Shown here: positions 398 to 17,524 of the stretch, piece by piece
How the letters are laid out: each line of letters opens with the position of its first letter
Position numbering within the stretch: position 1 is the first letter of the stretch
Virus record (IMG/VR): IMGVR_UViG_3300025141_014349
DNA length: 20,000 bases
From: an uncultured virus (IMG/VR IMGVR_UViG_3300025141_014349)
Taxonomy: Duplodnaviria; Heunggongvirae; Uroviricota; Caudoviricetes
Direction: 5' to 3' (one strand)
The notes under the pieces: generated by a model
Seen by the model: the letters and a program-made list of their open reading frames with translations, nothing else
The model's database searches: none
What the model was told of the DNA's origin: nothing
Program-made: the position numbers and the translations under genes

Positions 398-3049
398 ATG
401 GTTGGATTCGCCCACGAAGGATCTTTTGGAACTAAGTTTGAAGAAAGCACCGATAAAGAGAAAGGTGTTGATAAAAAACCCGCTGGTGAGATTAAGAAAA
501 AATTATCTCAATCAGAGATAGATAAGTGCATTAAGGACGCCAGGGATACAGAGGCGTGGACAACGTGTGTAACGAAGAAAGCCGACGAGTGGCTTACCTG
601 GCAATCGGGCGCAGAAGAGCATTGCGACGAAGAGAGCGCTGATAAGTGCGCAAAGGGTGTTGTTCCACGGAAAAAGAAAACTCTGAATGCTGAGAAGGTT
701 CGCAAGGAAAAGGGACAATCTGAACAAAGTTATTTATTACAAAATCTAAGTACCATTTCGAAAGACCGGCAGACATCGGACACCCCTCACGAGTCTGAGT
801 TCCCCAATTTGATTTTAGTGAAGGGCGTCGAAGGTAATCTAACTAATGTAATGTCGTGTAGTCGAAAGTTGGGACCTCTCTTGAATGCCAGTCCTCTAGA
901 ATTGTCCTCCCTCATGCCGAGTATTCGTATTTTTAAAAAATATTTGAGTCCCGGTCCTGAACACGAGGCCGACCAAATGGATGAATTTAGATTTGCGGAT
1001 TCTCTGCGGGTAGGAGATCTCACCGCACCCACCAGCATATACGGTTCGGGGGTTGGTCTCAAAAGTTTTGAGTGGAAAACAACGGGGACTGATGCATACA
1101 CAGCTCCGCGCACGCTGATGGCGACTCTCAAATTGCATTTCCAAACTATAGATGATTTACTGCCGCCAGATGCTGACCAGTGTGACTACGGTCCTAAGTG
1201 GGTAGATCTTATTATTCAAAAAGGAAGATCTCAGACTGCCAAAATCGCCAGTCAGAAATGCGACTTTGAAGAAACGCCGGCACAAAAGGAAAATAAGTGC
1301 GAAGACATAAACCCGAACTTTATGGATTACACCATAATGGTAGAGGTGGGATATGTTTATGCCTCAAACAATGAATTAAGTGATGCATTGAAAGACGCAG
1401 TTAACACTTCCCGAGTGATGCTCGCGCTGTCTCTACGCTCACATCGATTTTCTTTTCGAGACAATGGTTCTATTGACTTAGAAATTGAATACCAAGCATG
1501 GTATGAAGGAGTCACAGACACCTATAAGACTGATGTGTTTAATCTCGCCAGCAACGGAACTAATCCTATTGCTAAAAAGATCACAAAATTGGAAACTATG
1601 AAGATGCAGACACAAAAGAGCATCTCATCCCCCCAGGGACTTGCTTGCGATATAAAAGAAGCAAAATCCACCCAGAAGAGTACGGATGCTTTAGAAAAAG
1701 AAATGTCAAAAATCCAAGAGGACATTGAAAAAACGACGAAGGAAATAGATGAGCAGAAAAAAAATCTCAGGGCATCCAATTATGGTTCTTTTGTTCAATA
1801 TCTAATAAGGCAGAAGGCACTCTTTTCCATGACGGTTCGAAACTCTTGGTATGTACGTGGGCAGTTGCCCAAGAATCGAAGCACATCTAAGACATTCGAC
1901 AAGAGACCAGTGAAGAGGGGATATAGAAGAGTTTATTATTTCTTTTTGGGAGATCTTATAAACTTCATATCCAATGCGCTCCCAAACTATGGAGAATTGA
2001 CGGGATTGCCATCCAATGCAGAAGCAGTGGATAGAAATTTTGAAATAGTTCTTGGGGATATGGAATATTTAGATTGGAAAATTTTCAAAAAAGAAGTGTC
2101 CGAGGCAACAAGTTTTGCTAATTTGACACAGGAGCAAAAAAATGATATTGTTAGCACCAGTCGTAAGAATGAAAATTTAGCGTATCTTCCCATCTCTCTT
2201 GATTTGTATAGCGTATGGTTCGATAAAAATGTGAAGAATGGCAACACAGTGTGGACTTTTCACAACTATATCAATGCCCTTTTAGATCAGTTGCTCAAAG
2301 GTACACTCCAATCTCGCGCCGGCGACGAAATTGGCACCGACGCAATGCGCCTTTATAACGAGAGGAAAAGAGTAAGGCGCGGCATTTTAACGGGGAGAAA
2401 CTCTCTCTTACAAAGGGGGAGAGTGGTTTCCCAACCCAATAGTGTGGTAAATAGTTCGGGCGAAAACCGCATCTATATTGATCCCACCCTTAACAGCGGA
2501 ATCAGCACCCAATACCTTGTCCTTTCTGCTACTAGTCTTCCGTTCAGTTCTACCAACATTGACGAGGTGGCAAATATAAAAGAAGGCATTTATCACTTGA
2601 AGATAGGTACCGACGCTGGTATCGTTAAGTCTATAGATTTCAAGAGAACAGACAAGGGACACATCAGGGATTGGAACATTATGAAAGCCTACAACACTGG
2701 GGATACGAGTGTGGGCGCCATCCTCGAACCTTACAATGCCACTGTACGATTGTTTGGGTCTGCCTTCTTTCAACCTGGTCAATACGTGTATCTTAACCCT
2801 GCCACTCTAGGATCTGCCGATGCTTATACGCGGTTGTCGTTGGCGAGAAAATTGGGGTTGGGGGGATTTTATTTAATTACATCGGTTTCGACAGTAGCAG
2901 AGGAAGGTAAACTAGAGACTGTTCTAGATTGTGCATTCGAGTATTATGGGAATCTGCCTGGGGATTCGCCATTTGGGCAAGCGACTTCTACTATTTGGTC
3001 CACAGTTCCCTATCAGGATATAGAAAATCCGGAAGGAACCATAGCATAA
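398..3049 (+). CDS. Large virion protein, probable baseplate hub (gp27/GpD-like)
   Basis: 883-aa ORF with GGAGGG RBS; C-terminal YNATVRLFGSAFFQPGQYVYL...GLGGFYLITSVSTVAEEGKLETVLDC resembles the last beta-barrel of baseplate hub proteins; central coiled coil (~aa 390-460); follows the LysM gene. Confidence 0.55.
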   Translation: MVGFAHEGSFGTKFEESTDKEKGVDKKPAGEIKKKLSQSEIDKCIKDARDTEAWTTCVTKKADEWLTWQSGAEEHCDEESADKCAKGVVPRKKKTLNAEKVRKEKGQSEQSYLLQNLSTISKDRQTSDTPHESEFPNLILVKGVEGNLTNVMSCSRKLGPLLNASPLELSSLMPSIRIFKKYLSPGPEHEADQMDEFRFADSLRVGDLTAPTSIYGSGVGLKSFEWKTTGTDAYTAPRTLMATLKLHFQTIDDLLPPDADQCDYGPKWVDLIIQKGRSQTAKIASQKCDFEETPAQKENKCEDINPNFMDYTIMVEVGYVYASNNELSDALKDAVNTSRVMLALSLRSHRFSFRDNGSIDLEIEYQAWYEGVTDTYKTDVFNLASNGTNPIAKKITKLETMKMQTQKSISSPQGLACDIKEAKSTQKSTDALEKEMSKIQEDIEKTTKEIDEQKKNLRASNYGSFVQYLIRQKALFSMTVRNSWYVRGQLPKNRSTSKTFDKRPVKRGYRRVYYFFLGDLINFISNALPNYGELTGLPSNAEAVDRNFEIVLGDMEYLDWKIFKKEVSEATSFANLTQEQKNDIVSTSRKNENLAYLPISLDLYSVWFDKNVKNGNTVWTFHNYINALLDQLLKGTLQSRAGDEIGTDAMRLYNERKRVRRGILTGRNSLLQRGRVVSQPNSVVNSSGENRIYIDPTLNSGISTQYLVLSATSLPFSSTNIDEVANIKEGIYHLKIGTDAGIVKSIDFKRTDKGHIRDWNIMKAYNTGDTSVGAILEPYNATVRLFGSAFFQPGQYVYLNPATLGSADAYTRLSLARKLGLGGFYLITSVSTVAEEGKLETVLDCAFEYYGNLPGDSPFGQATSTIWSTVPYQDIENPEGTIA

Positions 3050-4276
3050 ATGAAAATTAGTTTCGGCGCCAATGATTTGCTAGCAAGCGCCTCGTTTGAT
3101 CAGCGCGTTCAATACCAAGACAATTACCCAGAGGGCATCAGAAACTATCGTGCCATAGACTATTGGTATGACGATGGGAATTATGGGAGACTCAATAGTG
3201 TCGGGGATCCAGTGTACCCTTCGGAGGCAAACCTCAAGCAACTAAGAGGAACTGGCGATAATGTATGTTATGTGTTGAATTTTGTGGCAGATGCATTTGA
3301 GGCGCTCCGTAATGCAGTGCGCTTTCAGCAGTCGAAAAATAATTTAGTCAACATTGGAGGAACTCCTTTCGAATTGGTGGCGTCAGCAGGATGGGTTAGT
3401 CTGAATGTCGCCTACACTCGCCACGCGCAGCATTTTTATGGGACTCACCTTTATCCTCATCTCTTGACGCCCACTGTTTCTGAAGATATTGTAGACTTTG
3501 ATGATTTCATTGAGGCGTTTACACAATTGGCGGACCAGGCGCTCTTGGTGACTCCGTTCACTAAGACTGAATATCTTATGAGTAAAAATTCCTCTCCGCT
3601 GATGAGCGGACTGGTGATCGAACTAAGTGACCTTTACGATCACGGAAGCGATCTAGAGAAGATAACTGATTTTATAAACAGTAATAACTTTGAAGTATAT
3701 AGAGAGATAGCGAACCTGCATGGGTTTGCAGTTGACAGGAACGCGCCCTGGAGACTCGTTGCGCTTCCAGGGTATCCTGCTATGCAGCGCTTCATGTCAA
3801 AGTATGGGGTAACTCTAAAGACGCTTTTTAAGAAGTATTATTATACTTCCTACTTTCTGGATATTCCAAGCATGAAATCCCATCTCTTTCAATATTATCA
3901 AGCGTTCACTACAGACTCTCCTGAGGTCCGCGTTCCCATTGTACGCGAGATGGGAGACAAAAAAATTAGCTTGACAAAGGTGATCCCGCGTGCTACACTG
4001 TCTCTTCAGGATTTTTTAGAAAAGTATAATAATTTATTTTGGATTCGTTTGTATGTTTATGTAAGGGCAAAGGAAACCAATCGCGATTGGAATCAATATA
4101 AGTTTGATCATATCGTGAAAGAAGCGAGTGATTTTTTTACTTATTCGACTGAGGCGGCAGCGTTTAAGTTCATCAATAAAGAGGTAAGAAGGTTCCCCTC
4201 GGACCAATTGGTCCCTTACCGTCGAGGATCCTTTAGGTTTAAAAGAAAGCGCAAATATCGTGAAGAGAATAGATAA
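3050..4276 (+). CDS. Hypothetical phage protein (408 aa, aromatic-rich, basic C-terminus)
   Basis: Long ORF starting right after the upstream stop (TAA|ATG) and overlapping the polymerase start; no recognised motif. Confidence 0.8.
   Translation: MKISFGANDLLASASFDQRVQYQDNYPEGIRNYRAIDYWYDDGNYGRLNSVGDPVYPSEANLKQLRGTGDNVCYVLNFVADAFEALRNAVRFQQSKNNLVNIGGTPFELVASAGWVSLNVAYTRHAQHFYGTHLYPHLLTPTVSEDIVDFDDFIEAFTQLADQALLVTPFTKTEYLMSKNSSPLMSGLVIELSDLYDHGSDLEKITDFINSNNFEVYREIANLHGFAVDRNAPWRLVALPGYPAMQRFMSKYGVTLKTLFKKYYYTSYFLDIPSMKSHLFQYYQAFTTDSPEVRVPIVREMGDKKISLTKVIPRATLSLQDFLEKYNNLFWIRLYVYVRAKETNRDWNQYKFDHIVKEASDFFTYSTEAAAFKFINKEVRRFPSDQLVPYRRGSFRFKRKRKYREENR
3971..3999 (+). promoter_or_regulatory. Sigma70-type promoter inside the 408-aa ORF, upstream of the polymerase gene
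   Basis: TTGACA (3971-3976), 17-nt spacer, TACACT (3994-3999), extended -10 TG at 3991-3992, A-tract upstream. Confidence 0.6.
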
Positions 4277-5459
4277 TGTTTTTACTGTTTTAGATTCAAA
4301 GAAAGAATGTTTAGGATATTATTATAGTGGCGATATAGCACCCGAGAAAACTCAAGATCAGTTTATAACATGGGATTACAAATCAGATTTTCATGAAGAT
4401 TATCTGGAGTATACTCAGTTATATGCCTTGGGCAAAACTCTTGGTGAAATATGTCCCCCCCACCTACAAGAAGAATGGGCCCGCCTCCAGAAGAAGAGAG
4501 CATCGTTTCAGAATGCACTTTGCACCGCGAAGGTGGACATGAATAGCGTCTGTGCCTATGACGTAATACCTCAGTGGTTTTTGAAGGAATACTCTCAAGT
4601 CAAGTGCGACATCATAGAATGGGTATATGAAAAAATAGAGCGCCCTTCCAATTATGATAAGATGCTTGGGCTAGAGAGACTCTTTGATGAGATAAAGTCC
4701 AATCCTCTGAGGGTTGACTTGGGGGCAATGAAAGGGGACGTGTCTTCCATGGTGGTGAGGCAAAACTTGAAGAAGTTGAGGGGGGCATCCAATTCAATAT
4801 CTTATAACCAGCACGGATCTATCACGGGTCGCCTTACTCTAGAGAGAGATAGTTTTCCTATTTTGAACCTTCCTAAGAATTTTAGAAAAATACTAAAACC
4901 AACTAATGATTTCTTTGTGGAGTTCGATTATAACGCAGCAGAACTAAGAACGCTGTTGGCGACCATGAACATCGAGCAACCGATGGAGGATATACACGAC
5001 TGGAATAGGCGCCACATCTTCAGAGATGGGTGCACCCGAGAAGAGGCGAAGAAGAGAGTCTTTGCATGGTTATACAATCCAGACTCCAAAGATGATTTGC
5101 TGAATCAATCCTATGACCGAGATGCAGTGCTCTCTAAGTATTGGGACGGCACGAAGGTGACAACTCCGTTTGGAAGGGAAATGGAAGCGGGCGAACATTA
5201 CGCTCTAAACTATATCATTCAGAGCACAACCAGCGATCTGGTTTTAGAGCAAGTGCTCAAAGTGCGCGAATTTCTTAAGGAATCCGATTCGAAAATAGTT
5301 TTTTTGATTCACGATAGTTTTGTGCTTGACATTCCCGCCGAAACGCGCTATAATATACCGGAGATCAAAAACATATTTGCGTCTAATCGCTTCGGAAAGT
5401 ATAGGGTTGGAGTAAAGGTGGGAAAAGATTTTGGTAGCATGAAGGAGATTGCTGTATGA
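4260..5459 (+). CDS. polA: Compact family A DNA polymerase (no recognisable exonuclease domains)
   Basis: GSITGRLT, motif A FDYNAAELR, DIH, motif B REEAKKRVFAWLY, TTPFGR, ALNYIIQSTTSD, motif C LIHDS; GTG start, exact start uncertain. Confidence 0.9.
   Translation: MKRIDNVFTVLDSKKECLGYYYSGDIAPEKTQDQFITWDYKSDFHEDYLEYTQLYALGKTLGEICPPHLQEEWARLQKKRASFQNALCTAKVDMNSVCAYDVIPQWFLKEYSQVKCDIIEWVYEKIERPSNYDKMLGLERLFDEIKSNPLRVDLGAMKGDVSSMVVRQNLKKLRGASNSISYNQHGSITGRLTLERDSFPILNLPKNFRKILKPTNDFFVEFDYNAAELRTLLATMNIEQPMEDIHDWNRRHIFRDGCTREEAKKRVFAWLYNPDSKDDLLNQSYDRDAVLSKYWDGTKVTTPFGREMEAGEHYALNYIIQSTTSDLVLEQVLKVREFLKESDSKIVFLIHDSFVLDIPAETRYNIPEIKNIFASNRFGKYRVGVKVGKDFGSMKEIAV
5326..5354 (+). promoter_or_regulatory. 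Perfect-consensus sigma70 promoter inside polA, upstream of the tubulin-like gene
   Basis: TTGACA (5326-5331), 17 nt, TATAAT (5349-5354); about 100 nt upstream of the ATG at 5456. Confidence 0.75.
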
Positions 5460-6301
5460 TGAATGTGGTGGGCATAGGAAAGGCGGGGTGCCGCATCGCT
5501 GGATTGCTGGATGAGTACCCTCAGTACGATGTCTATAAGATAGATGTTGGTCTGAAGAAAGCAGACCGCGTTTTCCCCATAACAAAACGGTCCTCTCCAA
5601 GCGAATATGAGGAAAAATTTTCGAAGAGGATTTTTTCAGATCTAAAAAAAATAAAAGGCAATGTTCTTCTTATAGTGGGAGGTGGGGGATCCATCTCATC
5701 CTGTACTCTTAGAGTGATGGAGGCATTGCGCCACAATACGATGGAATTGGTGTACGTCAAACCTGACCCTTCTTTTCTTACTGAATCAGGCATTATTTTA
5801 GATAAAATTGTATTCAATGTATTGCAAGAATATGCGCGCTCAGGACTTTTGGAAAAACTCTACATTGTTTCTAATGGTGAGATCGAAAAGGTTATAGGGC
5901 AAATTCCTGTTTCTCGATATTATCAAAAGATAAATGAGATAATTTCTTCCACATTGCACATGATTAACGTATATAAGAACTCAACGCCCGCACTTTCCAA
6001 CATTAAAGAGATTAGTGGCATTTCTCGGATTTCTACCATAGGCATTGGGACTTTCGAGAAGATGCGAGATCAGATGTTTTATCCTATTGATTATGTGGGC
6101 GAAAAAGTTTATTATTTTGCTATCAACAAAAAGCAACTGGATAAGGATGAAGAATTATTACCTAAGATTAAAATAAGAATAAAGCAGGAGGACTCAACGA
6201 TTAGAACTAGTTTTGGGGTGTATCCCACCCCATATGATGAAAACTATATTTATATTTTAGCAAACACCAAAATCATACAAGGAGTAAATTATGATGAGTA
6301 A
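5456..6301 (+). CDS. Divergent tubulin/FtsZ-superfamily protein (PhuZ/TubZ-like)
   Basis: N-terminal NVVGIGKAGCRIA (FtsZ VIGVGGAGxN-like loop), LLIVGGGGSISS at the position of the GGGTG[S/T]G signature, VYVKP, LYIVSN (cf. LIVIxN), N-containing helix YYQKINEIIS; AAGGAG RBS; ATGA overlap with the polA stop. Confidence 0.7.
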   Translation: MMNVVGIGKAGCRIAGLLDEYPQYDVYKIDVGLKKADRVFPITKRSSPSEYEEKFSKRIFSDLKKIKGNVLLIVGGGGSISSCTLRVMEALRHNTMELVYVKPDPSFLTESGIILDKIVFNVLQEYARSGLLEKLYIVSNGEIEKVIGQIPVSRYYQKINEIISSTLHMINVYKNSTPALSNIKEISGISRISTIGIGTFEKMRDQMFYPIDYVGEKVYYFAINKKQLDKDEELLPKIKIRIKQEDSTIRTSFGVYPTPYDENYIYILANTKIIQGVNYDE

Positions 6302-6575
6302 GATTTATACAGGAATGTTTCGTAAGAAAAATAATGATTTGAGGCATATGACTTTTGTTAAGTTAGATGATGTACCGCCACCCTTTTTGGAATCCAAGAT
6401 GAAAGGATCTGACGCAGATCGTAAAATGTCTAACGGCATGGAACTGGTATGGGATCTTGATCAGGATAACTTCCGCGTGTTCAATTGGGAATCCGTGGTT
6501 GGGCAGATTCGAGAGATTGAGATGAGCGAAGATGAAAAAAATAAGATTTTTGCGAATAAAGTCTTGACAGATTGA
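6291..6575 (+). CDS. Small SH3-fold WYL_2/DUF2693-like protein
   Basis: Pattern FRKKNNDLRHM...VWDLDQDNFRVFNW resembles the FxKxxGxxRxM...VWDxxxxxWRSF pattern of phage DUF2693/WYL_2 proteins; AAGGAG RBS. Confidence 0.6.
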   Translation: MMSKIYTGMFRKKNNDLRHMTFVKLDDVPPPFLESKMKGSDADRKMSNGMELVWDLDQDNFRVFNWESVVGQIREIEMSEDEKNKIFANKVLTD

Positions 6576-6592
6576 GTTGGGCGTGGTATGAT
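6564..6592 (+). promoter_or_regulatory. Sigma70-type promoter for ssb-tRNA-recA
   Basis: TTGACA (6564-6569), 17 nt, TATGAT (6587-6592), extended -10 TG; AAGGAG RBS follows before ATG 6622. Confidence 0.8.
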
Positions 6593-6621
6593 GTCAGCAT
6601 CGTTTATAAAGGAGAAAATTA

Positions 6622-7356
6622 ATGGCGATTGATATGAAAAAAATGCAAAGTAAATTAAATAATCTTAAGGCACGGGGTGGTGGGAATTCTTTTTGGAAAC
6701 CTACCGATGGCGTGCAAACGATTCGCATTCTTCCGACTGAAGATGCTGATCCTTTTAAGAGCTTTTATTTCCATTACAACATTGGAAAAGAAAATGGATT
6801 TCTTTGTCCAAATAATAATTTTGGCGATGATTGCCCTGTTTGTAGTTTCGTGAAGAATCTTTACCGTGAAGGTGACGATGAATCTCGGAATATGGCACGG
6901 CAATTGAACGCTAAGAGTCGTTTCTTCTCGCCCGTCTTAGTACGTGGTGAGGAGAGCGAGGGTACCCGCGTTTGGGGATACAGCAAGACTGTGTATGAAA
7001 CTTTACTTAGTTTAGTGCTTAATCCTGAATACGGGGATATCACTGATCTGGAAACCGGCGTGGATCTAGATCTTCATTATGGTAAACCGCCGGGCGGTCA
7101 ATTCCCCGTCACTAAGTTGACCCCCCGCCGCCAGTCTAGTTCACTTTGTAAGGAACTAACTGACGACCGATGCAAGGAACTTTTAGACAGTATTCCTGAC
7201 TTTAGTACCTTGTTCGAAAGGAAGACCACAGCGGATGTACAGAAAATGTTAGATGAACATCTGGCAGGTGATAACCCCGAAGGTTTCTCACGGGAAACGC
7301 AGAAGTATACTTCAGATTCGGATAAGGTGGATCAAGCATTTAGCGATCTACTTTAG
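6622..7356 (+). CDS. ssb: Single-stranded DNA-binding protein, T4 gp32-like
   Basis: FWKP...TIRILP, putative Zn ligands HY...CP...CPVC, YGDITD, acidic/hydrophobic C-terminal tail DSDKVDQAFSDLL; adjacent to RecA. Confidence 0.85.
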   Translation: MAIDMKKMQSKLNNLKARGGGNSFWKPTDGVQTIRILPTEDADPFKSFYFHYNIGKENGFLCPNNNFGDDCPVCSFVKNLYREGDDESRNMARQLNAKSRFFSPVLVRGEESEGTRVWGYSKTVYETLLSLVLNPEYGDITDLETGVDLDLHYGKPPGGQFPVTKLTPRRQSSSLCKELTDDRCKELLDSIPDFSTLFERKTTADVQKMLDEHLAGDNPEGFSRETQKYTSDSDKVDQAFSDLL

Positions 7357-7372
7357 GAACCCCTCCCACGGG

Positions 7373-7403
7373 GAGGCACAGGGTTATCAGGTGCCTCATT
7401 TTT
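7373..7403 (+). terminator. Terminator-like hairpin between ssb and tRNA-Glu
   Basis: GAGGCAC-(11 nt)-GTGCCTC followed by ATTTTT; overlaps an alternative hairpin at 7358-7385. Confidence 0.45.
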
Positions 7404-7476
7404 GTCTCCATCGTCTAATGGTTTAGGACTCTGCCCTTTCACGGCAGAAATAGAGGTTCAAATCCTCTTGGAGGCA
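7404..7476 (+). tRNA. trnE: tRNA-Glu(UUC), CCA not encoded
   Basis: Acceptor GTCTCCA/TGGAGGC, D arm GTCTAATGGTTTAGGAC, anticodon stem CTGCC/GGCAG with TTC at 7438-7440, T arm AGAGG-TTCAAAT-CCTCT, discriminator A7476. Confidence 0.93.
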
Positions 7477-7501
7477 TATTATTTACATGAAAGGGGATTC
7501 T

Positions 7502-8620
7502 ATGAAAAGACCTAAACCTAAGGCAGGTAAATTGAGCATTAGCGAAATGCGCAATTTGATCAACAAAAAGGCTGGCATGCCCGTAGCGCATGACCTTACT
7601 GCCGAGAACCCCACCGAAGTAAAAGATTGGATCCCTACGGGATCGACGTGGCTAAATGGCATTGTGTGCCGAGGAAGATCAGCGGGCATTCCTGTGGGGA
7701 AGTTGACCGAAATCGCGGGAATGGAGTCTAGTGGAAAGAGTTATATGGCGGCACAAATTGCATCTAACGCCCAGAAAATGGGAATTGATGTAATATATTT
7801 CGATGCGGAGTCCGCCATTGATCCATCTTTTCTTGAGCAAAGCGGTGTAGATTTAGCAAATATGTTATACTTGCAGGCGATCTCAGTAGAGTTTGTACTA
7901 GAAACTATAGAAGATCTCCTCAAAACGAACGACAATAAGATGTTGTTTGTTTGGGACTCTTTGGCACTTACCCCAGCGGTTAGCGATGTGGAAGGCACTT
8001 TTAATCCGAATGAGTCTGTGGCGGTTAAAGCGCGCGTACTGGCGAAAGGCATGTCTAAGTTGGTGGTCTCTTTGGCGAATGCTCAATCTACGCTCCTCGT
8101 GCTCAATCAGTTGAAAACGAACCTTCAGGTTCAGAATCCAAAGTATGCGACTGACAGCGAAAAGTATGTTTGCCCAGGCGGCAAGTCAATGGCATATGCA
8201 TATAGTTTGCGTATTTGGTTAACGGGAAGACGAGGCGCCAGCAGTTTTATTTTAGACGACAAAGGGTATCGAATTGGAAACGAAGTCAAGGCACGACTAG
8301 AGAAGTCCCGGTTTGGGACTGCGGGTCGTATATGTAATTTTAAGATCATGTGGGGAAGAGATATAGGTATCCGTGATGACGAGAGTCTCTTTGAAGCAAT
8401 CAAGAGTTCTGAGCATCTCAAAAACAGCGGACCTTGGTGGACCCTCGTTTATGCCGACGGGACGGAAGAGAAATTTCAGGTAAAAAAATGGATAGATTTC
8501 ATGCAGCGCCAAGAGTTTCGCGCGAGAGTGATGCAACTATTAGACGAAGAGGTTATTCTCAAGTTTGATAAGCGCCTGGTGGAAGCAGATCGATTTTATG
8601 AAGCGGAGGAAGAAGAGTGA
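7502..8620 (+). CDS. recA: RecA/UvsX-family recombinase
   Basis: IPTGS...GIPVGKLTEIAG, Walker A GMESSGKS, YFDAE, Walker B LFVWDS, LNQLK, PGGK; start set at ATG 7502 behind AAGGGG (ORF track starts at 7487). Confidence 0.95.
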   Translation: MKRPKPKAGKLSISEMRNLINKKAGMPVAHDLTAENPTEVKDWIPTGSTWLNGIVCRGRSAGIPVGKLTEIAGMESSGKSYMAAQIASNAQKMGIDVIYFDAESAIDPSFLEQSGVDLANMLYLQAISVEFVLETIEDLLKTNDNKMLFVWDSLALTPAVSDVEGTFNPNESVAVKARVLAKGMSKLVVSLANAQSTLLVLNQLKTNLQVQNPKYATDSEKYVCPGGKSMAYAYSLRIWLTGRRGASSFILDDKGYRIGNEVKARLEKSRFGTAGRICNFKIMWGRDIGIRDDESLFEAIKSSEHLKNSGPWWTLVYADGTEEKFQVKKWIDFMQRQEFRARVMQLLDEEVILKFDKRLVEADRFYEAEEEE

Positions 8621-9108
8621 GTGGTACTACTTTTTTTCTATGTATGGTAGTGGTTCAAATGGACTATACTTACGACCAAGCAAAGACGGCGTGTGACTTG
8701 ATGCCCATTATCGAGCAGGAGTCCTATAATAACAATATAGACCCAGGATTAGTGGTATCTATTATCCACGTAGAGAGCGCGTGGCGCCCAAACGCTGTTA
8801 GTGCTAGGGGTGCGTGCGGATTGATGCAACTCGTCCCCACATCCCATCGTACGCCCTCTGGGAAGGTATATAGTTGTAGGCAGTTGAAAGATCCGGCGCT
8901 GAATATTCGCTTGGGAGTAGAGCACCTCAAGAAGTGGATAGATTTAGCGAACGGGGAAATGCCGCTAGCGCTGTGTGTCTATCATAGAGGACCTAAGTGT
9001 TTTGAAGATCCATCTTATCACTATATTGAAAAAGTAGTATCTGTGTATGGTCGGTTCATATCAGAGGTGGTCGCTCTAGGAGGATCTTATGAAGAAGGTG
9101 GCGGATGA
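8617..9108 (+). CDS. Lytic transglycosylase (SLT domain)
   Basis: IIHVES (catalytic Glu), NAVSARGACGLMQL, LKDPALNIRLGVEHL, ALCVYHRG (cf. ALAAYNAG); GTGA overlap with the recA stop. Confidence 0.9.
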   Translation: MSGTTFFLCMVVVQMDYTYDQAKTACDLMPIIEQESYNNNIDPGLVVSIIHVESAWRPNAVSARGACGLMQLVPTSHRTPSGKVYSCRQLKDPALNIRLGVEHLKKWIDLANGEMPLALCVYHRGPKCFEDPSYHYIEKVVSVYGRFISEVVALGGSYEEGGG

Positions 9109-9280
9109 TTTTATAAAATCGCTTCGAGAAACTATCTCAATTGCTATTGAGGCGCACGAGTTGATGATTGCTGATGTATCAAAAGCATCTCAGAAGGTGA
9201 AGCGTCTCCAAAAGGAGAATCAGAAGTTGAAAGAAAAGCTGGCGGCACTGCAAAAGAGTGCGAAAGAGAAAGAAGAATAG
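9089..9280 (+). CDS. Small coiled-coil hypothetical protein
   Basis: AGGA RBS; heptad-like KVKRLQKENQKLKEKLAALQK; fills the gap between the SLT and exonuclease genes. Confidence 0.65.
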   Translation: MKKVADDFIKSLRETISIAIEAHELMIADVSKASQKVKRLQKENQKLKEKLAALQKSAKEKEE

Positions 9281-9281
9281 A

Positions 9282-10259
9282 ATGAAAAGATTGATGGTTA
9301 TTGACGGGAATAACGCTTTCATTAGACATTATATAGTCAACCCTTCCATCTCCACCAACGGGCAACCAATTGGTGGAATTGTTGGGTTTTTGCGTGGATT
9401 ACAAAAGTTGAGTCGCATGATCCGCCCGGATGGAATTGTGGTGGTGTGGGATGGTGCAGGTGGCAGCAAGAAAAGAAAGTCCATGGTGAAAACCTATAAA
9501 GAAGGAAGGAAACCAGTTAGACTCAATAGAAATATTAGAAATCTAGACGACAACGAGGAGGCAGAAAACGCCATGTGGCAACAGTTGAGGGTGGTAGAAT
9601 ATCTCAATGAAACGCCCGTAGTTCAGTTTGTCTTCCCTGAAGTAGAAGCGGATGATGTGATCGCGCAGACGTGCCTCCTGCCGGAATTTAAGGAGTGGCA
9701 GAAGGTGATAGTGTCGAGTGATAAAGATTTTATTCAATGTTGTGATTCCAACACCATTCTTTACCGGCCAATTCAAAATGAGATTCTGAATGAGCGTGAA
9801 ATAGTAGAGCAGTTTTCTATTCATCCCACCAACTTTGCGTTGGCACGAGCAATTGCAGGAGACAAATCAGATAACCTTCCGGGCGTTTCTGGTATAGGAT
9901 TGAGTACAATTGCCAAGCGACTTCCAATGATCCAAGAGGGGAACACTTTTCTGTTGAGCGATTTGGAGCATGAGTGTCACAAGAAGGTCGAGGAAGGCAC
10001 CAATCTGACGTTTTACGGTCGCGTCTTGGATAACCTGAAGTTGATTGGATTGAATTATAAGGTCATGCAGTTATATAGTCCTTCGATATCCATCCAGACA
10101 GCACAAGTCATCAGTTCAACATTTGAGTCCTATGACCCACAATTTAGACAAACAGAAATAATAAAGATGCTGTTTGCGGATGGGTTCCCTCAAGTTAATT
10201 TAGATGATATTTATGGTGTGTTTAAGAGAATCGTCCGCGAGAGCAAAGAAACTTCTTGA
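9282..10259 (+). CDS. 5'-3' exonuclease / flap endonuclease (Pol I N-terminal domain or T4 RNase H-like)
   Basis: LMVIDG, VVWDG, YKEGR, EADD, SSDKDFIQ, AIAGDKSDNLPGVSGIG (helix-hairpin-helix); start set at ATG 9282. Confidence 0.93.
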   Translation: MKRLMVIDGNNAFIRHYIVNPSISTNGQPIGGIVGFLRGLQKLSRMIRPDGIVVVWDGAGGSKKRKSMVKTYKEGRKPVRLNRNIRNLDDNEEAENAMWQQLRVVEYLNETPVVQFVFPEVEADDVIAQTCLLPEFKEWQKVIVSSDKDFIQCCDSNTILYRPIQNEILNEREIVEQFSIHPTNFALARAIAGDKSDNLPGVSGIGLSTIAKRLPMIQEGNTFLLSDLEHECHKKVEEGTNLTFYGRVLDNLKLIGLNYKVMQLYSPSISIQTAQVISSTFESYDPQFRQTEIIKMLFADGFPQVNLDDIYGVFKRIVRESKETS

Positions 10260-10284
10260 CAAAAATACAAAATCGGGTTATGAT
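10256..10284 (+). promoter_or_regulatory. Sigma70-type promoter for the helicase-RNR genes
   Basis: TTGACA (10256-10261, contains the upstream TGA stop), 17 nt, TATGAT (10279-10284). Confidence 0.8.
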
Positions 10285-10313
10285 CTATTAAGAATTAAAA
10301 GACGGGGAATAGT

Positions 10314-11669
10314 TTGATCGATGAAGAAAAAAAGACATTTGGTACGTTTGGGAAATCGTTCCAAGAAGCATTAGCAAAATTGATTTTGGAAGATTCCAAA
10401 TTTGCATCCCAAATCGGAGAAGTCTTGGATATAAATTTCTTCGAACTGAGATACCTTCAGAATTTTGTGAAGAAGGTGTACGCTTACAGAGAGGATTACA
10501 CTACTCACCCTAGTCGCGACACCTTTGAGAGTATGCTGAAGAGCGACTCTGGTGGCGCCCATGAAGCAGTAAGAAAACAGGTAAGAGATTTCTACGTTAG
10601 AGTGGTTTCCGGGCGTACCGGAGATGTGGATGAAGAATATGTAAAGACCAATTCGCTAGATTTCTGTAGGAAGCAGAAATTACAAGAAGCAATGCTGCAA
10701 AGTGTCAATCTTATGCAGAACTCTTCTTTCGATGAAATCAGTAAAATCATCAACGACGCGCTGAAGTTGGGTCTTAACACAGATTTTGGATATGATTTTA
10801 TTGAAGATTTCGAACAGCGCTATCAACTGGTTTCTCGACACCCCATTACTACCGGTTGGGCGGAAATAGATAAGATTTTACGAGGTGGATTGGGGAGCGG
10901 CGAGTTGGGCGTAGTGATTGCTCCCACCGGAGTGGGCAAAAGTATGGTATTGACCAGACTGGGCGCCAAAGCCATACAGGCCGGAGAGACCGTAGTTCAC
11001 TACACTTTGGAACTCCAAGATGTGAGTGTGGGAAATCGATACGATAGTTGTATTACGGGCATTCGTCTCAATGACTTATTTAATCAAAAGGATGAGATCT
11101 TAGAAGAGATTCGCGAGATTCCTGGCAGACTGTTGATTAAAGAATACCCTACAAAATCGGCCACGACGAAGACCATTCGCAATCATCTAGAGAAGCTTCA
11201 GCAGCGCGATATTGACATTGGAATGGTAATTGTTGACTATGGAGATATTTTAAAACCTATTTTTCATTCAAAAGAGAAAAGGGATAATCTCGAAACTATT
11301 TATGAAGAGTTGAGGGCAATTGCGCAAGAGTTCGAATGCCCTGTTTGGACGGCCTCCCAGACCAACAGGAGTGGAATAAACGCTGAAGTTATAACCATGG
11401 AATCTATAAGCGAAGCATATTCAAAATGCTTTGTAGCGGACTTTATTTTTTCAGTTTCGAGGACGGTTGCGGACAAAATGAACAACACCGGTAGAATTTT
11501 TATTGCTAAAAATCGTAATGGCATCGATGGGGTGGTATATCCAATCTTTATGGATGCTGCCAATGTAGATATCAAAGTTCTCCCTCAAATTAATCTCACT
11601 TCCAGCGACGATAAACTGAGTGCTATTCAAGAAAAATATAAAGAGTGGCGCGGCACACAAAACACATAA
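10314..11669 (+). CDS. dnaB: Replicative DNA helicase, DnaB/T4 gp41 family
   Basis: ITTGW..ID..L.GG, Walker A APTGVGKS, YTLE, IKEYPT, IVDY, WTASQTNR, IAKNRNG; TTG start after GGGGA. Confidence 0.93.
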   Translation: MIDEEKKTFGTFGKSFQEALAKLILEDSKFASQIGEVLDINFFELRYLQNFVKKVYAYREDYTTHPSRDTFESMLKSDSGGAHEAVRKQVRDFYVRVVSGRTGDVDEEYVKTNSLDFCRKQKLQEAMLQSVNLMQNSSFDEISKIINDALKLGLNTDFGYDFIEDFEQRYQLVSRHPITTGWAEIDKILRGGLGSGELGVVIAPTGVGKSMVLTRLGAKAIQAGETVVHYTLELQDVSVGNRYDSCITGIRLNDLFNQKDEILEEIREIPGRLLIKEYPTKSATTKTIRNHLEKLQQRDIDIGMVIVDYGDILKPIFHSKEKRDNLETIYEELRAIAQEFECPVWTASQTNRSGINAEVITMESISEAYSKCFVADFIFSVSRTVADKMNNTGRIFIAKNRNGIDGVVYPIFMDAANVDIKVLPQINLTSSDDKLSAIQEKYKEWRGTQNT

Positions 11670-11692
11670 ACTAAAAAGGAAGGGGAGCAATT

Positions 11693-13549
11693 ATGGAGTT
11701 GTCAAGTAAAATTTTGAGTGATATTACTGTTTACATGAAATATGCTAGGTATTACGAGGATGAACAGCGAAGAGAGACGTGGGAAGAGTTAGTAACGAGA
11801 AATAAGGAAATGCATTTGAGAAACTATCCTCAACTGCATAATGAGATCGAGAAGGCGTATCGACTGGTTTATGAGAAGAAAATTCTCCCATCGATGCGTT
11901 CTTTGCAGTTTAGTGGTCGACCAATCGAGATTTCTCCCAATAGGATTTATAATTGTGCTTTTCTTCCCATAGATGACTGGCGCGCGTTTAGTGAGGTGCT
12001 CTTTCTGCTGCTGGGCGGCACCGGCGTAGGGTACAGCGTGCAGCGTCATCATGTCGAGAGACTCCCCGACATCCGAAAGCCCAACCCAGAACGAAATCGT
12101 CGATATCTTATTGGAGATAGTATTGAGGGGTGGGCCGACGCAGTAAAGATTCTAATGAAATCTTATTTTTTTGGCACCCCTACTATCAATTTTGATTTTA
12201 GTGACATACGCGCCAAGGGTGCACAATTAGTTACAAGCGGTGGCAAAGCGCCCGGTCCCGAACCCCTCAAGACTTGTTTACGTCAGATTAAAGGTATCCT
12301 CAACGAAAAGAAAGATGGAGATCAACTGCGATCATTAGAAGTGCATGATATCATTTGCCACATTGCAGATGCAGTTTTAGCAGGCGGAATCCGCCGCGCT
12401 GCTCTGATTTCATTGTTTTCAGCAGATGACGAAGAGATGATTGCTTGTAAGTATGGCAATTGGTTTGAGAGAAACCCGCAGCGAGGAAGATCTAACAACA
12501 GTGCAGTTTTACTGAGACATAAAATAGATCGAGAGTTCTTTGATAACCTATGGGAAAAAATTAAATTAAGCAACAGTGGAGAACCAGGCATTTATTTTTC
12601 TAACGACAAGGACTATGGAACTAACCCGTGTTGCGAAATAGCGCTCCGCCCATTCCAGTTTTGTAACTTGTGTGAAGTTAATTCTTCCGATGTGGAAGAT
12701 CAAGAAGACCTCAACAACCGCGTTTCTGCTGCTTCTTTCATTGGCACGTTGCAGGCAGGATATACTAATTTTCATTATTTGCGCTCCGTATGGCAGCGCA
12801 CAACGGAAAAGGAAGCATTGATTGGCGTAAGCTTAACTGGAATCGCCTCCAGGAGGTTGGAAGACCTAAATCTGAAAGAGGCAGTACAAGAGGTTAAGAG
12901 AGTCAACGTTGAGACTGCGGAGAAGATTGGCGTCAACACTGCCGCTCGTCTTACCACTATTAAACCAGCGGGAACAACGTCTTTGGCGCTGGGATGCAGT
13001 TCGGGCATCCATGCGTGGCATAATGATTATTATATCCGCCGCATTAGGGTTGGTAAAAATGAGTCTATTTATCCTCACCTTGTGGCAAACCACCCAGAGC
13101 TGGTTGAGGATGAATACTTTAGACCTCACGACACGGCAGTGATTGCGGTGCCACAGAAAGCACCGCAAGGCGCCGTATTGCGACACGAATCTGCCTTCAC
13201 GTTGCTGGAAAGAGTAAAGTGGTTTTACGAGAAGTGGATCAAACCAGGACATCGCCGCGGCCAAAATACTCACAATATTTCTGCTACTGTTTCGCTCAGA
13301 GAAGATGAGTGGGACGAGGTGGGAGAGTGGATGTGGGAAAACCGCCATTGTTATAATGGACTTTCTGTGCTTCCTTATTATGGTGGTTCCTACAAGCAAC
13401 CGCCCTTTGAAGATTGCGATAAAGAAAGTTATGAACAAATGATGGCGTCTTTGAGCATGGTGGATCTCACGAGGATCAGCGAAGTGGAAGACAACACGGA
13501 CCTCAAGGGAGAACTAGCATGCCAAGGTGGCGCCTGCGAGATAAGATAA
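11693..13549 (+). CDS. nrdJ: Class II (adenosylcobalamin-dependent) ribonucleotide reductase
   Basis: KYAR...RETW, LPSMR, YNCAF, GTGVG, GGIRRAA, GEPG, TNPCCEI (thiyl Cys), TTIKPAGT, C-terminal CQGGAC; no beta-subunit gene adjacent. Confidence 0.9.
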   Translation: MELSSKILSDITVYMKYARYYEDEQRRETWEELVTRNKEMHLRNYPQLHNEIEKAYRLVYEKKILPSMRSLQFSGRPIEISPNRIYNCAFLPIDDWRAFSEVLFLLLGGTGVGYSVQRHHVERLPDIRKPNPERNRRYLIGDSIEGWADAVKILMKSYFFGTPTINFDFSDIRAKGAQLVTSGGKAPGPEPLKTCLRQIKGILNEKKDGDQLRSLEVHDIICHIADAVLAGGIRRAALISLFSADDEEMIACKYGNWFERNPQRGRSNNSAVLLRHKIDREFFDNLWEKIKLSNSGEPGIYFSNDKDYGTNPCCEIALRPFQFCNLCEVNSSDVEDQEDLNNRVSAASFIGTLQAGYTNFHYLRSVWQRTTEKEALIGVSLTGIASRRLEDLNLKEAVQEVKRVNVETAEKIGVNTAARLTTIKPAGTTSLALGCSSGIHAWHNDYYIRRIRVGKNESIYPHLVANHPELVEDEYFRPHDTAVIAVPQKAPQGAVLRHESAFTLLERVKWFYEKWIKPGHRRGQNTHNISATVSLREDEWDEVGEWMWENRHCYNGLSVLPYYGGSYKQPPFEDCDKESYEQMMASLSMVDLTRISEVEDNTDLKGELACQGGACEIR

Positions 13550-14294: not shown

Positions 14295-15017
14295 ATGAGG
14301 AAGAAAAAGATTCACCTCTATGGCGACGGAAAAGGTTCAGTAGAATATGTGGAACACATGGGCAGCGATTTATCCGTGGTAAATTCTGCTCGCGTTTCTT
14401 TCGGTGTGCATAAAAAAAAACTAAACGAAGACGATAAGAAACTTATCTCTTATTTGGTGAAGAACGGTCATACCTCCACACTTGAACATTGCAGCATAAC
14501 AATGCGCCTTACTGTTCCCCTCTTCGTCCGCTCCCAACACCACAGGCATCGAACTTGGTCGTACAATGAGATCTCACGGAGGTATACCGATGTGGATATT
14601 CAGTTTTATGAACCGAAAGAGTTCAGGACTCAACATGATAGCAACAGGCAGGCAAGCAATGTGGGGGACACTAGCGATCCTATCGTGGCATGGAATGAGA
14701 AGTCTTTTCCTGAAGGAGGTGGTCTGCCCGTATACGCCAGCGGCATAACTAGAGAACACCACAAGGAATCTATGCGAGTCTATCAGAGTTTACTTGACGC
14801 TGGCGTATGCCGCGAGCAAGCGAGGGGAGTGCTACCGCAGAACATGTATACTCAATATTATGGCACAGTAAATCTAAATAATTTGCTAAAGTTCATTGAT
14901 TTGCGAACCCACGAAGGAGCGCAATGGGAGATACAGAAGGTTGCCGAAGCATGTTTGGAAATAGCAACTGAACTGTTTCCTATTACAGTGGGCGCATATA
15001 GAAAAGAGAGGAAATGA
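14295..15017 (+). CDS. thyX: Flavin-dependent thymidylate synthase
   Basis: NSARVSF, GHTSTLEH, signature RHRTWSYNEISRRY, REQARGVLP, LRTHEGAQWEI; start uncertain (ATG 14238 or 14295). Confidence 0.95.
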   Translation: MRKKKIHLYGDGKGSVEYVEHMGSDLSVVNSARVSFGVHKKKLNEDDKKLISYLVKNGHTSTLEHCSITMRLTVPLFVRSQHHRHRTWSYNEISRRYTDVDIQFYEPKEFRTQHDSNRQASNVGDTSDPIVAWNEKSFPEGGGLPVYASGITREHHKESMRVYQSLLDAGVCREQARGVLPQNMYTQYYGTVNLNNLLKFIDLRTHEGAQWEIQKVAEACLEIATELFPITVGAYRKERK

Positions 15018-15784
15018 TTGTTCCGCACTACAATAAGATTATTGTAGGGGGATCTTTGGCAGCACTGCTCTACGCGTATAAAAATAAAATACCTGTAGTG
15101 TGGGTTAGTCCCAGGATCCCCTCGTTCTTTGAGGTGGATGAAAGAGGCAACAGTAAGCAACAACTGTGGCACAAATTAGCGTTTCAACTATCTTTGTCCG
15201 GCACCGCACCGATGGCACCCGGCGGTACAAGTATTAGGGTAGAGGATAACAATATCCTAAAACTCTTTACGGATGGTCCCTTCTTTGCTACGCTTCGATT
15301 CGGCGAGTTGATCGTCTTCGATGACACTCAGTTGGAAGGGTGGGACAACGAACTTGGGCGCGCCAAAAAGTATCGTGTTCTTGATTGGATTAACGATAGG
15401 CAAAGTTCACCCCACAAGGTCGAAAAGATGATCAGCGACGACGACTTGGCTAGAGAGGTTTATTTTTATCCCTCTCATCGGATAGACGGCAATTGGAGTG
15501 GCAAGAAGGATATGGTAGCGGTTTCTTATTTGAACCGCAAGCAAATTGATAGCGTGGAATATTGTGATACTTATGTGAGATTTAAGGTTTTACACATGAT
15601 GAAAGAAGCGGGCATACGTGGTCCAAAAAATGGCGTGAACAAGAAAGATCCCACCAAGCATAATTATTTATCCGTTAAAATAGAGACGGCGAGACGAGAG
15701 GTAGAGACAATCATAATTCCCCCCTTCGACGAAGACGAACTCTTACAAGATTTTGAATTGAGGAATCGGTATCTGGATGGATAA
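15014..15784 (+). CDS. Hypothetical protein with degenerate N-terminal Rossmann (FAD/NAD-binding-like) motif
   Basis: KIIVGGSLAALLYA...IPVVWV resembles the beta-alpha-beta GxGxxG unit but lacks glycines; overlaps the thyX stop. Confidence 0.55.
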   Translation: MIVPHYNKIIVGGSLAALLYAYKNKIPVVWVSPRIPSFFEVDERGNSKQQLWHKLAFQLSLSGTAPMAPGGTSIRVEDNNILKLFTDGPFFATLRFGELIVFDDTQLEGWDNELGRAKKYRVLDWINDRQSSPHKVEKMISDDDLAREVYFYPSHRIDGNWSGKKDMVAVSYLNRKQIDSVEYCDTYVRFKVLHMMKEAGIRGPKNGVNKKDPTKHNYLSVKIETARREVETIIIPPFDEDELLQDFELRNRYLDG

Positions 15785-16724
15785 GAAACCGAGTACAACA
15801 ACTTATTATAATTTGGTGGGCATTGTCCCGGTAGCAGCGCAACCATTAGATTTTAAATTCCCTTGGCACGATAGTCTAATTCCCATTGGGAATAATTATC
15901 TTGCAGTTGAACGAAGTGTATACGAGTGCGCCGTCGCTGGTTGCGAGAGCATATGGGTGGTGTGCCATAAAGAAATGCAGTCTTTGATCCGCCATCGTTT
16001 GGGCGACAGAATATGTGATCCCACCACCCTCCCAGTTATTAAGAGTCACTTTGTAAAGCACGCTTCGGAACATATAAAATATATACCAATATATTACGTT
16101 CCCATACATCCCAAAGATAGAGATAAGAGGGACTGTCTTTCATGGAGCATTGTTTATGGTTCAATGCGCGCGTTTTCGATATCAAAGATGATAAGTAAGT
16201 GGACAGTTCCTGATAAGTATTATGTTTCTTTTCCTTATGGAGTCTACGATGCCCTTCAGATGAAAGAGCATCGCACGCAAATATCTAGCAAGAAAAAATT
16301 CTATCTGTCGCACAAGGGAAAGACAATAAAGGACGGCGAGTATCTTTCTTTTACTTTTGATGCGAAGGACTGGAAAGAATTTAGAAGAATCATTCGAGGC
16401 GGAACGGGGAAGTATGAACCAGGGTCTTATTTTGATGAAGAGTCCCGCACCATAAAGGGAGATGTTCTTCCTGTAAATGAAAGGCATGACGCGAAACACT
16501 ATTCCCTAGAAAAGGTTTTCGGGTGGTTAGATTTGGAAGATCACAATACGGCGGAGTGTAAATCATATTATAAGATTGACAACTGGGAAGGTTATTGTAC
16601 CTATATGGGGACCGATGTCGCAAAGAATCTAAAGAGACCCAACTACACCCTTAAGTATCACGAACATAATCCATTTGGAGTAGACCGGGAAGAAATCGTA
16701 GGCAACGCTGAAGAAACTTCTTGA
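15777..16724 (+). CDS. Divergent sugar-nucleotidyltransferase-fold protein
   Basis: LVGIVPVAA...SLIPIGNNYLAVERSVYECAVAGCESIWVV follows the NTP_transferase N-terminus (GIILAGG..LLPI....AGI.EI.IV) but lacks GGxGTR and PK. Confidence 0.55.
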   Translation: MDKKPSTTTYYNLVGIVPVAAQPLDFKFPWHDSLIPIGNNYLAVERSVYECAVAGCESIWVVCHKEMQSLIRHRLGDRICDPTTLPVIKSHFVKHASEHIKYIPIYYVPIHPKDRDKRDCLSWSIVYGSMRAFSISKMISKWTVPDKYYVSFPYGVYDALQMKEHRTQISSKKKFYLSHKGKTIKDGEYLSFTFDAKDWKEFRRIIRGGTGKYEPGSYFDEESRTIKGDVLPVNERHDAKHYSLEKVFGWLDLEDHNTAECKSYYKIDNWEGYCTYMGTDVAKNLKRPNYTLKYHEHNPFGVDREEIVGNAEETS

Positions 16725-16749
16725 CAACCTTCGCAAAGTGTGGTATAGT
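16721..16749 (+). promoter_or_regulatory. Sigma70-type promoter for tRNA-Leu and the beta-barrel gene
   Basis: TTGACA (16721-16726, contains the upstream TGA stop), 17 nt, TATAGT (16744-16749), extended -10 TG. Confidence 0.8.
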
Positions 16750-16772
16750 GTAGGCAGATTTTGAAAATGGGA

Positions 16773-16858
16773 GCCGGGATGGCGGAATTAGTATACGCAA
16801 GGCACTTAAAATGCCTCGATCTTTGATCTTGCCGGTTCGAGTCCGGCTACCCGTACCA
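16773..16858 (+). tRNA. trnL: tRNA-Leu(UAA), CCA encoded, non-canonical acceptor stem
   Basis: Anticodon stem AGGCA/TGCCT with TAA at 16807-16809, variable arm GATC-TTT-GATC, T arm GCCGG-TTCGAGT-CCGGC, A discriminator plus CCA; acceptor GCCGGGA/TACCCGT has two mismatches. Confidence 0.85.
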
Positions 16859-16949
16859 TATATTAGGGTGGACTGTGACATATAGCAAAAAAATAAAACG
16901 ATATGCCGCAAAAAAATTACAGACGATTCTGAGTAAGGAGAAACTTCTA

Positions 16950-17495
16950 ATGAAAAAACTATTACTAATAGCAGCAATGCTATTCTGCTTTCCTACGTAT
17001 GCGCAGGAAAAGAGCGATTACTTTGGACTGGGTGCGGCCACCGGTGCAACTAGCGGTGTGGGACTGACTCACAAAGGTTATTTAAACGATTTCGGATACC
17101 AATTAACTTTGGGTGCATTTGGTTCGCCCAATGATATGTTGATGGGATCAGTTGGCGGTAACTTGAGTTATACATTCGCTAAGATGAAATATGCGCGCCT
17201 CTATGGATTGGTGGGGGTAGGTACCTTCTTTAATCGCACCGCACATCATGAATACGAAATGTGCGATTGGAATCAGATTACTCAAACAGATGAGAACTGT
17301 GTTACGGTACCGGAAAGGTTCACCCATGGCGCCATAGCTAATGTTGGCGCGGGTTTAGGGATTGAAGTCTTATTTTGGGACACAGTGGGCGTATCCTTTG
17401 ATGTTCCTCTCTCAACTAGTCTAGGAATAGGCGATGGGGTGGAACTACTTGGTTTCTTCCCGATCCCCAATCTTTCTTTGGTTTATTACTTTTAG
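16950..17495 (+). CDS. Outer-membrane beta-barrel protein with Sec signal peptide
   Basis: AAGGAG RBS; signal peptide MKKLLLIAAMLFCFPTYA; alternating Gly/hydrophobic strands; terminal LVYYF beta-signal. Confidence 0.75.
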   Translation: MKKLLLIAAMLFCFPTYAQEKSDYFGLGAATGATSGVGLTHKGYLNDFGYQLTLGAFGSPNDMLMGSVGGNLSYTFAKMKYARLYGLVGVGTFFNRTAHHEYEMCDWNQITQTDENCVTVPERFTHGAIANVGAGLGIEVLFWDTVGVSFDVPLSTSLGIGDGVELLGFFPIPNLSLVYYF

Positions 17496-17524
17496 GAATC
17501 TATTTATAAAGAAGAGGCGCACCT

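Follow-up and report, generated by a model that had tools for sequence, protein, structure and literature searches.

A predicted tubulin/FtsZ-fold protein without the usual catalytic parts in the replication cluster of an uncultured T4-like phage lineage

The stretch of 20,000 nucleotides (nt) analysed here (the window) belongs to the uncultured Caudoviricetes virus IMGVR_UViG_3300025141_014349 of IMG/VR, and forms the terminal part of a 134.5-kb viral record (G000) with a completeness of 74%. It carries a replication locus in which a small DNA polymerase gene is followed by a gene for a protein of 281 amino acids (aa) with a predicted tubulin/FtsZ fold, a family of which we found no description in the open-access literature. 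The genes of this locus are arranged as follows:

4260..5459, + strand: mini family-A DNA polymerase (polA), 399 aa, PF00476 with E 8e-13
5456..6301, + strand: protein with a predicted tubulin/FtsZ fold, from a phage family without earlier description, 281 aa, recognized by predicted fold and motif analysis
6291..6575, + strand: WYL_2-like protein (Sm/SH3 barrel), an optional insert, 94 aa, PF10902 below cut-off plus structure neighbours
6622..7356, + strand: T4 gp32-like single-strand DNA-binding protein (SSB), 244 aa, PF08804 with E 1.4e-14 and phrog_1192 with E 5.3e-21
7487..13549, + strand: rest of the replication cluster, comprising RecA/UvsX, a 5'-3' exonuclease, DnaB and a class II ribonucleotide reductase (Pfam, PHROG)

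A first-pass annotation, made from the letters of the window, had described the first four of these genes as a candidate module, and the arrangement it reported is indeed present: polA and the tubulin-like gene overlap in an ATGA (5456-5459), the tubulin-like and WYL-like genes overlap by 11 nt (6291-6301), and SSB comes next, starting 46 nt past the WYL-like stop codon. Its proposal of a tubulin/FtsZ fold for the 281-aa protein is supported by structural comparison. The AlphaFold2 model, built from 97 sequences, reached a predicted local distance difference test score (pLDDT) of 94.6, and Foldseek matched it to FtsZ with E 1.6e-14, a template modelling (TM) score of ~0.7 and 13% identity. When the model was compared with 48,161 representative chains, the top 17 rows all belonged to the tubulin superfamily (Z 14-25), whereas unrelated Rossmann folds scored 11 or less. 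The best matches were archaeal CetZ (Z 24.8; root-mean-square deviation 3.2 across 257 residues), Bacillus TubZ (22.7) and bacterial FtsZ (21.9), followed by tubulins (~20), TubZ of phage c-st (18.7) and PhuZ (16.4-16.8). Residues 1-278 align with CetZ, TubZ, FtsZ and tubulins along the N-terminal nucleotide domain, the C-terminal activation domain and helix H7 between them, so that the protein is predicted to have the complete two-domain fold.

Searches based on sequence recovered none of this kinship. The 281-aa protein gave no match in Pfam, PHROG or NCBIfam, nor in the PDB searched by sequence and by profile; the family profile showed no sign of tubulin kinship against PhuZ, and its alignment with FtsZ, although in register, had a probability of 2.5, by itself not significant. 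No relative was detected in 50,697 GenBank phage records or in GTDB genomes scanned with a single-protein pattern. The ESM Atlas contains the sequence, and the fold has been labelled automatically for some family members, because one neighbouring viral cluster in the Atlas bears a tubulin/FtsZ name. A homodimer prediction with GTP and Mg scored 0.00, which counts neither for nor against a dimer.

The tubulin-like family is large, with 498 proteins after clustering at 90%, 884 representatives after clustering at 50% identity and an estimated ~2,100 IMG/VR stretches carrying the gene. Gene order was followed in 116 loci from two scans (the second being the best 80 of 572), which reduce to 85 clusters at 90% identity, and in a reverse, PolA-anchored set (the best 80 of 586; 63 IMG/VR clusters), both samples being biased to near relatives and partly shared. 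SSB lies 3' of the tubulin-like gene in 85/85 clusters and PolA lies 5' in all 76 with enough upstream sequence, the other nine loci ending at most 524 nt upstream, while RecA stands behind SSB in 66 of the 67 relatives showing both. The tubulin-SSB gap is below 150 nt in 68/85 clusters and the PolA-tubulin gap below 100 nt in 53/76; the two latter genes overlap in 41/76 when open reading frames are called from the first start. Conversely, all 63 PolA-anchored relatives possess the tubulin-like gene. The gene that intervenes between polA and the tubulin-like gene elsewhere (L004:7693-8001 and 16 other loci) encodes ~100-130 aa beginning with KLVRDxIP and has no Pfam or NCBIfam name; it may resemble MazG-like nucleotide pyrophosphatases.

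The synteny that the first-pass annotation proposed to check holds for PolA, tubulin and SSB, with RecA behind them, but not for the WYL-like gene, which occurs in 14/85 tubulin-anchored and 18/60 PolA-anchored relatives (in the former set always between the tubulin-like gene and SSB) and was found nowhere in two of three near-complete genomes. On a tubulin tree built by a fast method (84 rows, one short row excluded) it requires five gains or losses, three of them forced by strongly supported branches. Its match to WYL_2 (PF10902; E 0.0049, 17.6 bits against a gathering score of 26.7) is below the cut-off, as are the 15.7-21.2 bits obtained in three relatives, a fourth giving no match; the assignment is backed by feature and structure neighbours in the Atlas that bear WYL_2, with a fold likeness of TM 0.6-0.79. 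Given this sporadic distribution, the suggestion of an obligatory WYL-like adaptor was rejected, and the gene is a passenger. Because the order PolA-tubulin-SSB-RecA is maintained while the WYL-like gene comes and goes, conservation extends to the replication cluster as a whole, of which the supposed four-gene module is the front part. The tubulin-like gene itself belongs to the core of a large, uncultured lineage of T4-like phages.

The new element of the locus is the tubulin family, as the mini-PolA, which had also been regarded as undescribed, is of the divPolA1 type already published (PMC11348598), a membership resting on a profile match to gp001 of Flavobacterium phage immuto (probability 97.5) and on gene order; the published cluster includes MK892784, MK892766 and MK892584. 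As far as the accessible text shows, divPolA1 was reported in 14 immuto-related phages (Yutin et al. 2024, PMC11348598), with an active palm, a truncated thumb and a dead exonuclease; conserved replication genes lie downstream of it, and a second polymerase is present. The accessible part of PMC10201439 contains no PolA class like the mini-PolA. The polymerase residues D223, R260, K264, Y272, H351 and D352 (motifs A/B/C) are invariant in 93 sequences, and the model aligns with 379 residues of the Klenow fragment (Z 20.7), whose entire length the 399 aa span. At the putative Exo I and Exo III sites, placed without a residue-level alignment, Asp12 is kept and Lys14 (96%) and Lys115 (93%) replace the expected acids. 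The mini-PolA thus has intact polymerase motifs and a proofreading domain that is likely dead.

As in the published loci, gp32, RecA, exonuclease and DnaB lie downstream in the window, and most of the related genomes have a second polymerase. DnaE is encoded in 4/5 relatives of 170-204 kb and in 14/17 related records, most of the 17 being fragments; it was not found in the 74%-complete G000. A family-B polymerase was ruled out as replicase, with PolB present in 0/5 of the relatives of 170-204 kb, and the mini-PolA likely works alongside DnaE. The DnaE gene of G000 may have moved into the missing 26%, been lost or been mis-assembled; if truly lost, the mini-PolA would be the sole phage polymerase. 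Two unnamed conserved genes at window 15014-16724 (256 and 315 aa, no Pfam or PHROG match) lie directly 5' of DnaE in relatives, and in 4/4 relatives inspected the 315-aa gene is followed by DnaE and dUTPase (in three also ClpP), with a 556-aa gene afterwards in two. The ~800 nt at window 16724-17525 hold only tRNA-Leu(TAA), at 16773-16858, and an outer-membrane-barrel-like gene where relatives have DnaE.

The sequence of the tubulin family departs from its fold-mates in several motifs. Motifs were counted in 138 sequences, namely the query and 137 of 149 representatives (50% identity) of 260-320 aa, in which residues 4-171 are in register with E. coli FtsZ through T1, T4, Asn140 (Asn165 in FtsZ) and Asn160 (Asn186). 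The nucleotide pocket is retained in part: T1 GxGxxG in 112/138, the central Gly76 of T4 in 131/138, Asn140 of T6 in 77%, Asn160 of H7 in 81%, Asp30 in 69% and the H7 [YF]xxxN pattern in 77/138. By contrast, the T4 signature GGGTG(S/T)G (searched as GGG[TS]G[ST]) appears in 0/138 and T3 GxG in 13/138, and the T7/H8 acid pair, counted from the H7 asparagine, in 3/138 in the PhuZ register and 0/138 in the FtsZ register. From Asn160 to Gly196, which we infer to be the counterpart of FtsZ Gly226, there are 37 residues in 132/138 sequences against 41 in FtsZ (Asn186-Gly226), a proline falls at +24 to +28 of this stretch in 84/138, and in the model H7 (152-174) is followed by a long strand (192-198) with no helix intervening; helix H8 is predicted to be absent. 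Since the chain stops within 13 residues of Gln275 in 134/138 sequences, there is neither an H11 nor an acidic tail. The best-kept residues other than glycines (Gln124, Arg128, Ser129, Gln275) are specific to the family.

FtsZ and PhuZ hydrolyse GTP through two T7/H8 aspartates of the next subunit, according to the accessible portions of PMC8936486, 10.1101/311498 and PMC3678025. The 281-aa protein would still bind GTP or GDP, as the T1 loop, the T4 glycine, Asn140 and Asn160 suggest, while the usual polymerisation-triggered hydrolysis is probably impossible for it and its GTPase activity presumably low. As the usual hydrolysis route is likely closed and the gene is fixed inside the replication cluster, we tentatively favour, at somewhat less than even confidence, a nucleotide-binding, GTPase-poor and non-dynamic protein that scaffolds the replication and recombination proteins of the phage or acts as their partner. 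It might act at the replication site as a static helper and not as a moving spindle. Of all this, gene order, family size and motif loss are direct observations, the fold and the loss of H8 are predictions, and each step concerning function is inference.

Several observations weigh against this proposal. In immuto, a cultured relative, divPolA1 and SSB do without this tubulin-like gene. A gene of ~100 aa separates PolA from the tubulin-like gene in 17 relatives, and the proximity of genes is by itself a weak argument for partnership. Position 185, a Glu in the window protein, is acidic in 63/138 sequences and position 188 in 71/138, and Glu49 and Glu52, near T3, are conserved at 88-89%; because of these frequent or conserved acids an unusual catalytic route is possible. 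Finally, the loss of H8 is read from one predicted monomer, and the register beyond residue 171, where the FtsZ alignment ends, was counted from H7. As for immuto, the slot between divPolA1 and SSB holds two unrelated genes in place of the tubulin-like gene; gp002 and gp003 were considered as split tubulin halves and rejected. The family profile found no match in immuto or in Microcystis phage Mel-JY01, but as the same profile misses PhuZ in 201phi2-1, only this family is excluded there. In the accessible text on the divPolA1 locus of Immutovirus-related phages (PMC11348598), the word 'tubulin' does not occur in the main text, nor 'tubulin' or 'FtsZ' in three supplements.

The acids at 49 and 52 bear directly on a different possibility, that of a true cytomotive filament which, in the manner of PhuZ or TubZ, moves phage DNA or capsids or positions them. 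Catalysis would then pass from the lost pair to a non-standard residue (the Glu185/Glu188 region acting in trans, or Glu49/Glu52 in cis), and no tail would be needed. Both tubulin domains are intact in the model, the genomes measure 170-204 kb, and the phage tubulins characterized so far are positioning or partition filaments, as described in the accessible parts of PMC3678025 and PMC13282480. Phage tubulins in print comprise, in the portions available, the PhuZ and TubZ types and one FtsZ-like gene in phage G (PMC7824862, PMC13282480, PMC12484599, PMC12625630). Nevertheless, the acid pair in 0-3/138 sequences, T3 GxG in so few and the missing tail make such a filament doubtful. PhuZ of the Chimalliviridae shares with the 281-aa family a phage-encoded tubulin fold and the Tyr-x-x-x-Asn spacing of H7, but requires a long C-terminus, D187/D190 and T3 GXG (accessible part of 10.1101/311498, from which, with the 201phi2-1 sequence, we took these residues); the family lacks the D187/D190 pair, T3 GXG, H11 and the acidic knuckle tail, and among the full-length tubulin matches of the model the PhuZ chains score lowest. 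TubZ, which serves type III partition in phage c-st and Bacillus plasmids, is alike in fold (Z 18.7-22.7), whereas the 281-aa protein is ~100 residues shorter than Bacillus TubZ and tail-less. According to the accessible text of PMC7824862, DNA polymerase III is likewise the enzyme of c-st and other jumbo phages of group 3.2. CetZ and FtsZ, in spite of being the best structural matches, have only 11-16% identity to the family, which is missing their signature motif and catalytic loop.

The genomic context likewise speaks against a moving filament. The search for chimallin, TubR and centromere-like repeats proposed in the first-pass annotation brought up none of them: unlike TubZRC, the locus has no tandem, iteron-like or centromere-like repeat array at 3000-8000, the stretch scanned, and no conserved small neighbour fit for TubR. 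A single-sequence search, which a distant chimallin could escape, gave no chimallin match in seven different genomes (three of them at least 90% complete; 0/5 and 0/4 in the sets searched), its positive control in 201phi2-1 working. RNA polymerase beta (PF00562) appeared in 0/9 genomes with controls at 14/14, and the RNA polymerase subunits of 201phi2-1 found no match in G000 or in a second genome, G003. Instead of a multisubunit RNA polymerase, as in the Chimalliviridae, G000 has T4-type genes: it encodes a T4-type capsid, portal, terminase, protease and sheath together with a gp55-like late sigma factor, its capsid being nearest, among cultured phages, to those of immuto (37%) and Mel-JY01 (36%). 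The window phage is thus T4-like, apparently of a non-nucleus-forming type and with sigma70-like promoters, in line with the first-pass annotation, while the idea of a positioning system like PhuZ or TubZ is weakened by the missing parts and by the lack of a repeat array near the gene.

Three promoter-like sites were located around the genes in question:

3971..3999, + strand: sigma70-like promoter before polA, 10/12, with TG
5326..5354, + strand: perfect sigma70 consensus promoter within the 3' end of polA, ~100 nt 5' of the tubulin-like gene, 12/12
6564..6592, + strand: sigma70-like promoter for SSB, 11/12, with TG

In relatives, sites of at least 11/12 occur 5' of PolA in 26/64, of the tubulin-like gene in 10/80, of SSB in 37/85, of DnaB in 21/40 and of RecA in 2/67, and in 0/168 control windows. 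The promoter inside polA is restricted to some relatives, nine of the ten with a strong pre-tubulin site having it at the same place as the window; its -35 match is partly forced by coding, because the box shares bases with the codon for Asp357 of PolA, an invariant residue. The site at 6564-6592 implies that SSB is likely transcribed from a start of its own. Expression of the 281-aa protein from such promoters would be early.

Early expression would also suit an inhibitor of host division, whose nucleotide-bearing top face and broken T7/H8 bottom face would allow it to cap host FtsZ filaments at the end where they grow, early in infection. Growth at the T7-exposing bottom end has been suggested for FtsZ and bottom-face mutants reported as toxic (accessible part of PMC8936486), and the accessible text of PMC5414002 on FtsZ polarity makes no prediction; the nearest folds are CetZ, TubZ and FtsZ, and 10/80 relatives have the strong promoter directly 5' of the gene. 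The top face, however, is unlike FtsZ too (11-16% identity, no T3 GxG), and a gene fixed in the replication cluster of 63/63 relatives would be better explained by a core replication role, so that we regard the capping of FtsZ as unlikely. The GroEL of one relative, with at most 49% identity to many phyla alike, was uninformative on the host.

It is very unlikely, in our opinion, that the protein senses guanine nucleotides as a monomer or has a structural role without nucleotide, for instance in the virion or in packaging, so that its place among replication genes would be historical. Such a role would account for the invariant QEYARS motif, Arg191 and Gln275, all outside the nucleotide loops, and for the late structural genes directly upstream in the window, but early-type promoters flank the gene and the pocket residues of T1, T4, T6 and H7 are still conserved. 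With respect to these surroundings, the late structural genes (Pfam, PHROG) adjoin the replication locus within the window, and two unnamed genes at 398-4276 (883 and 408 aa, no Pfam or PHROG name) occupy the same place 5' of polA in relatives with enough upstream sequence. Behind SSB, the stretch 7366-7477 holds a hairpin with a run of T after it, seen by eye and absent from the terminator scan list, and then tRNA-Glu(TTC) at 7403-7477.

Elsewhere in the record, ribosomal protein S21 (G000:C1:84394-84594) adjoins the prohead protease and is also found in 5/5 relatives tested, an Hc1 histone-H1-like protein is encoded at G000:C1:76098-76286, and a single 1047-aa protein at G000:C1:71519-74662 fuses an Mre11/SbcD-type nuclease to an SMC/SbcC ATPase. 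Two big clusters of sugar-nucleotide, sialic-acid (NeuB), glycosyl-, sulfo- and methyltransferase genes (G000:C1:12000-36000 and 86000-93200) suggest glycosylation of the virion or of the host surface.

PhuZ and TubZ are dynamic GTPase filaments tied to the phage nucleus or to partition, whereas the 281-aa family has lost the dynamic parts and kept the nucleotide pocket, and none of Pfam, PHROGs and NCBIfam recognizes it in the sequences scanned. It may, though we put this forward with reserve, represent a third kind of phage tubulin, very widespread and core to a lineage of non-nucleus T4-like phages: a pseudo-GTPase that has no tail and is no longer dynamic, and that scaffolds a replication centre or complements divPolA1 with its shortened thumb, or else acts as a chain terminator of host FtsZ. 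If this is true, either role would put the tubulin fold to a use that has not been seen in viruses. The family offers a small natural test of what the tubulin fold does once hydrolysis is gone, supplies a branch that a recent FtsZ/tubulin survey lacks (PMC9871819, in which the words 'phage' and 'virus' are absent), and marks a common uncultured phage lineage.

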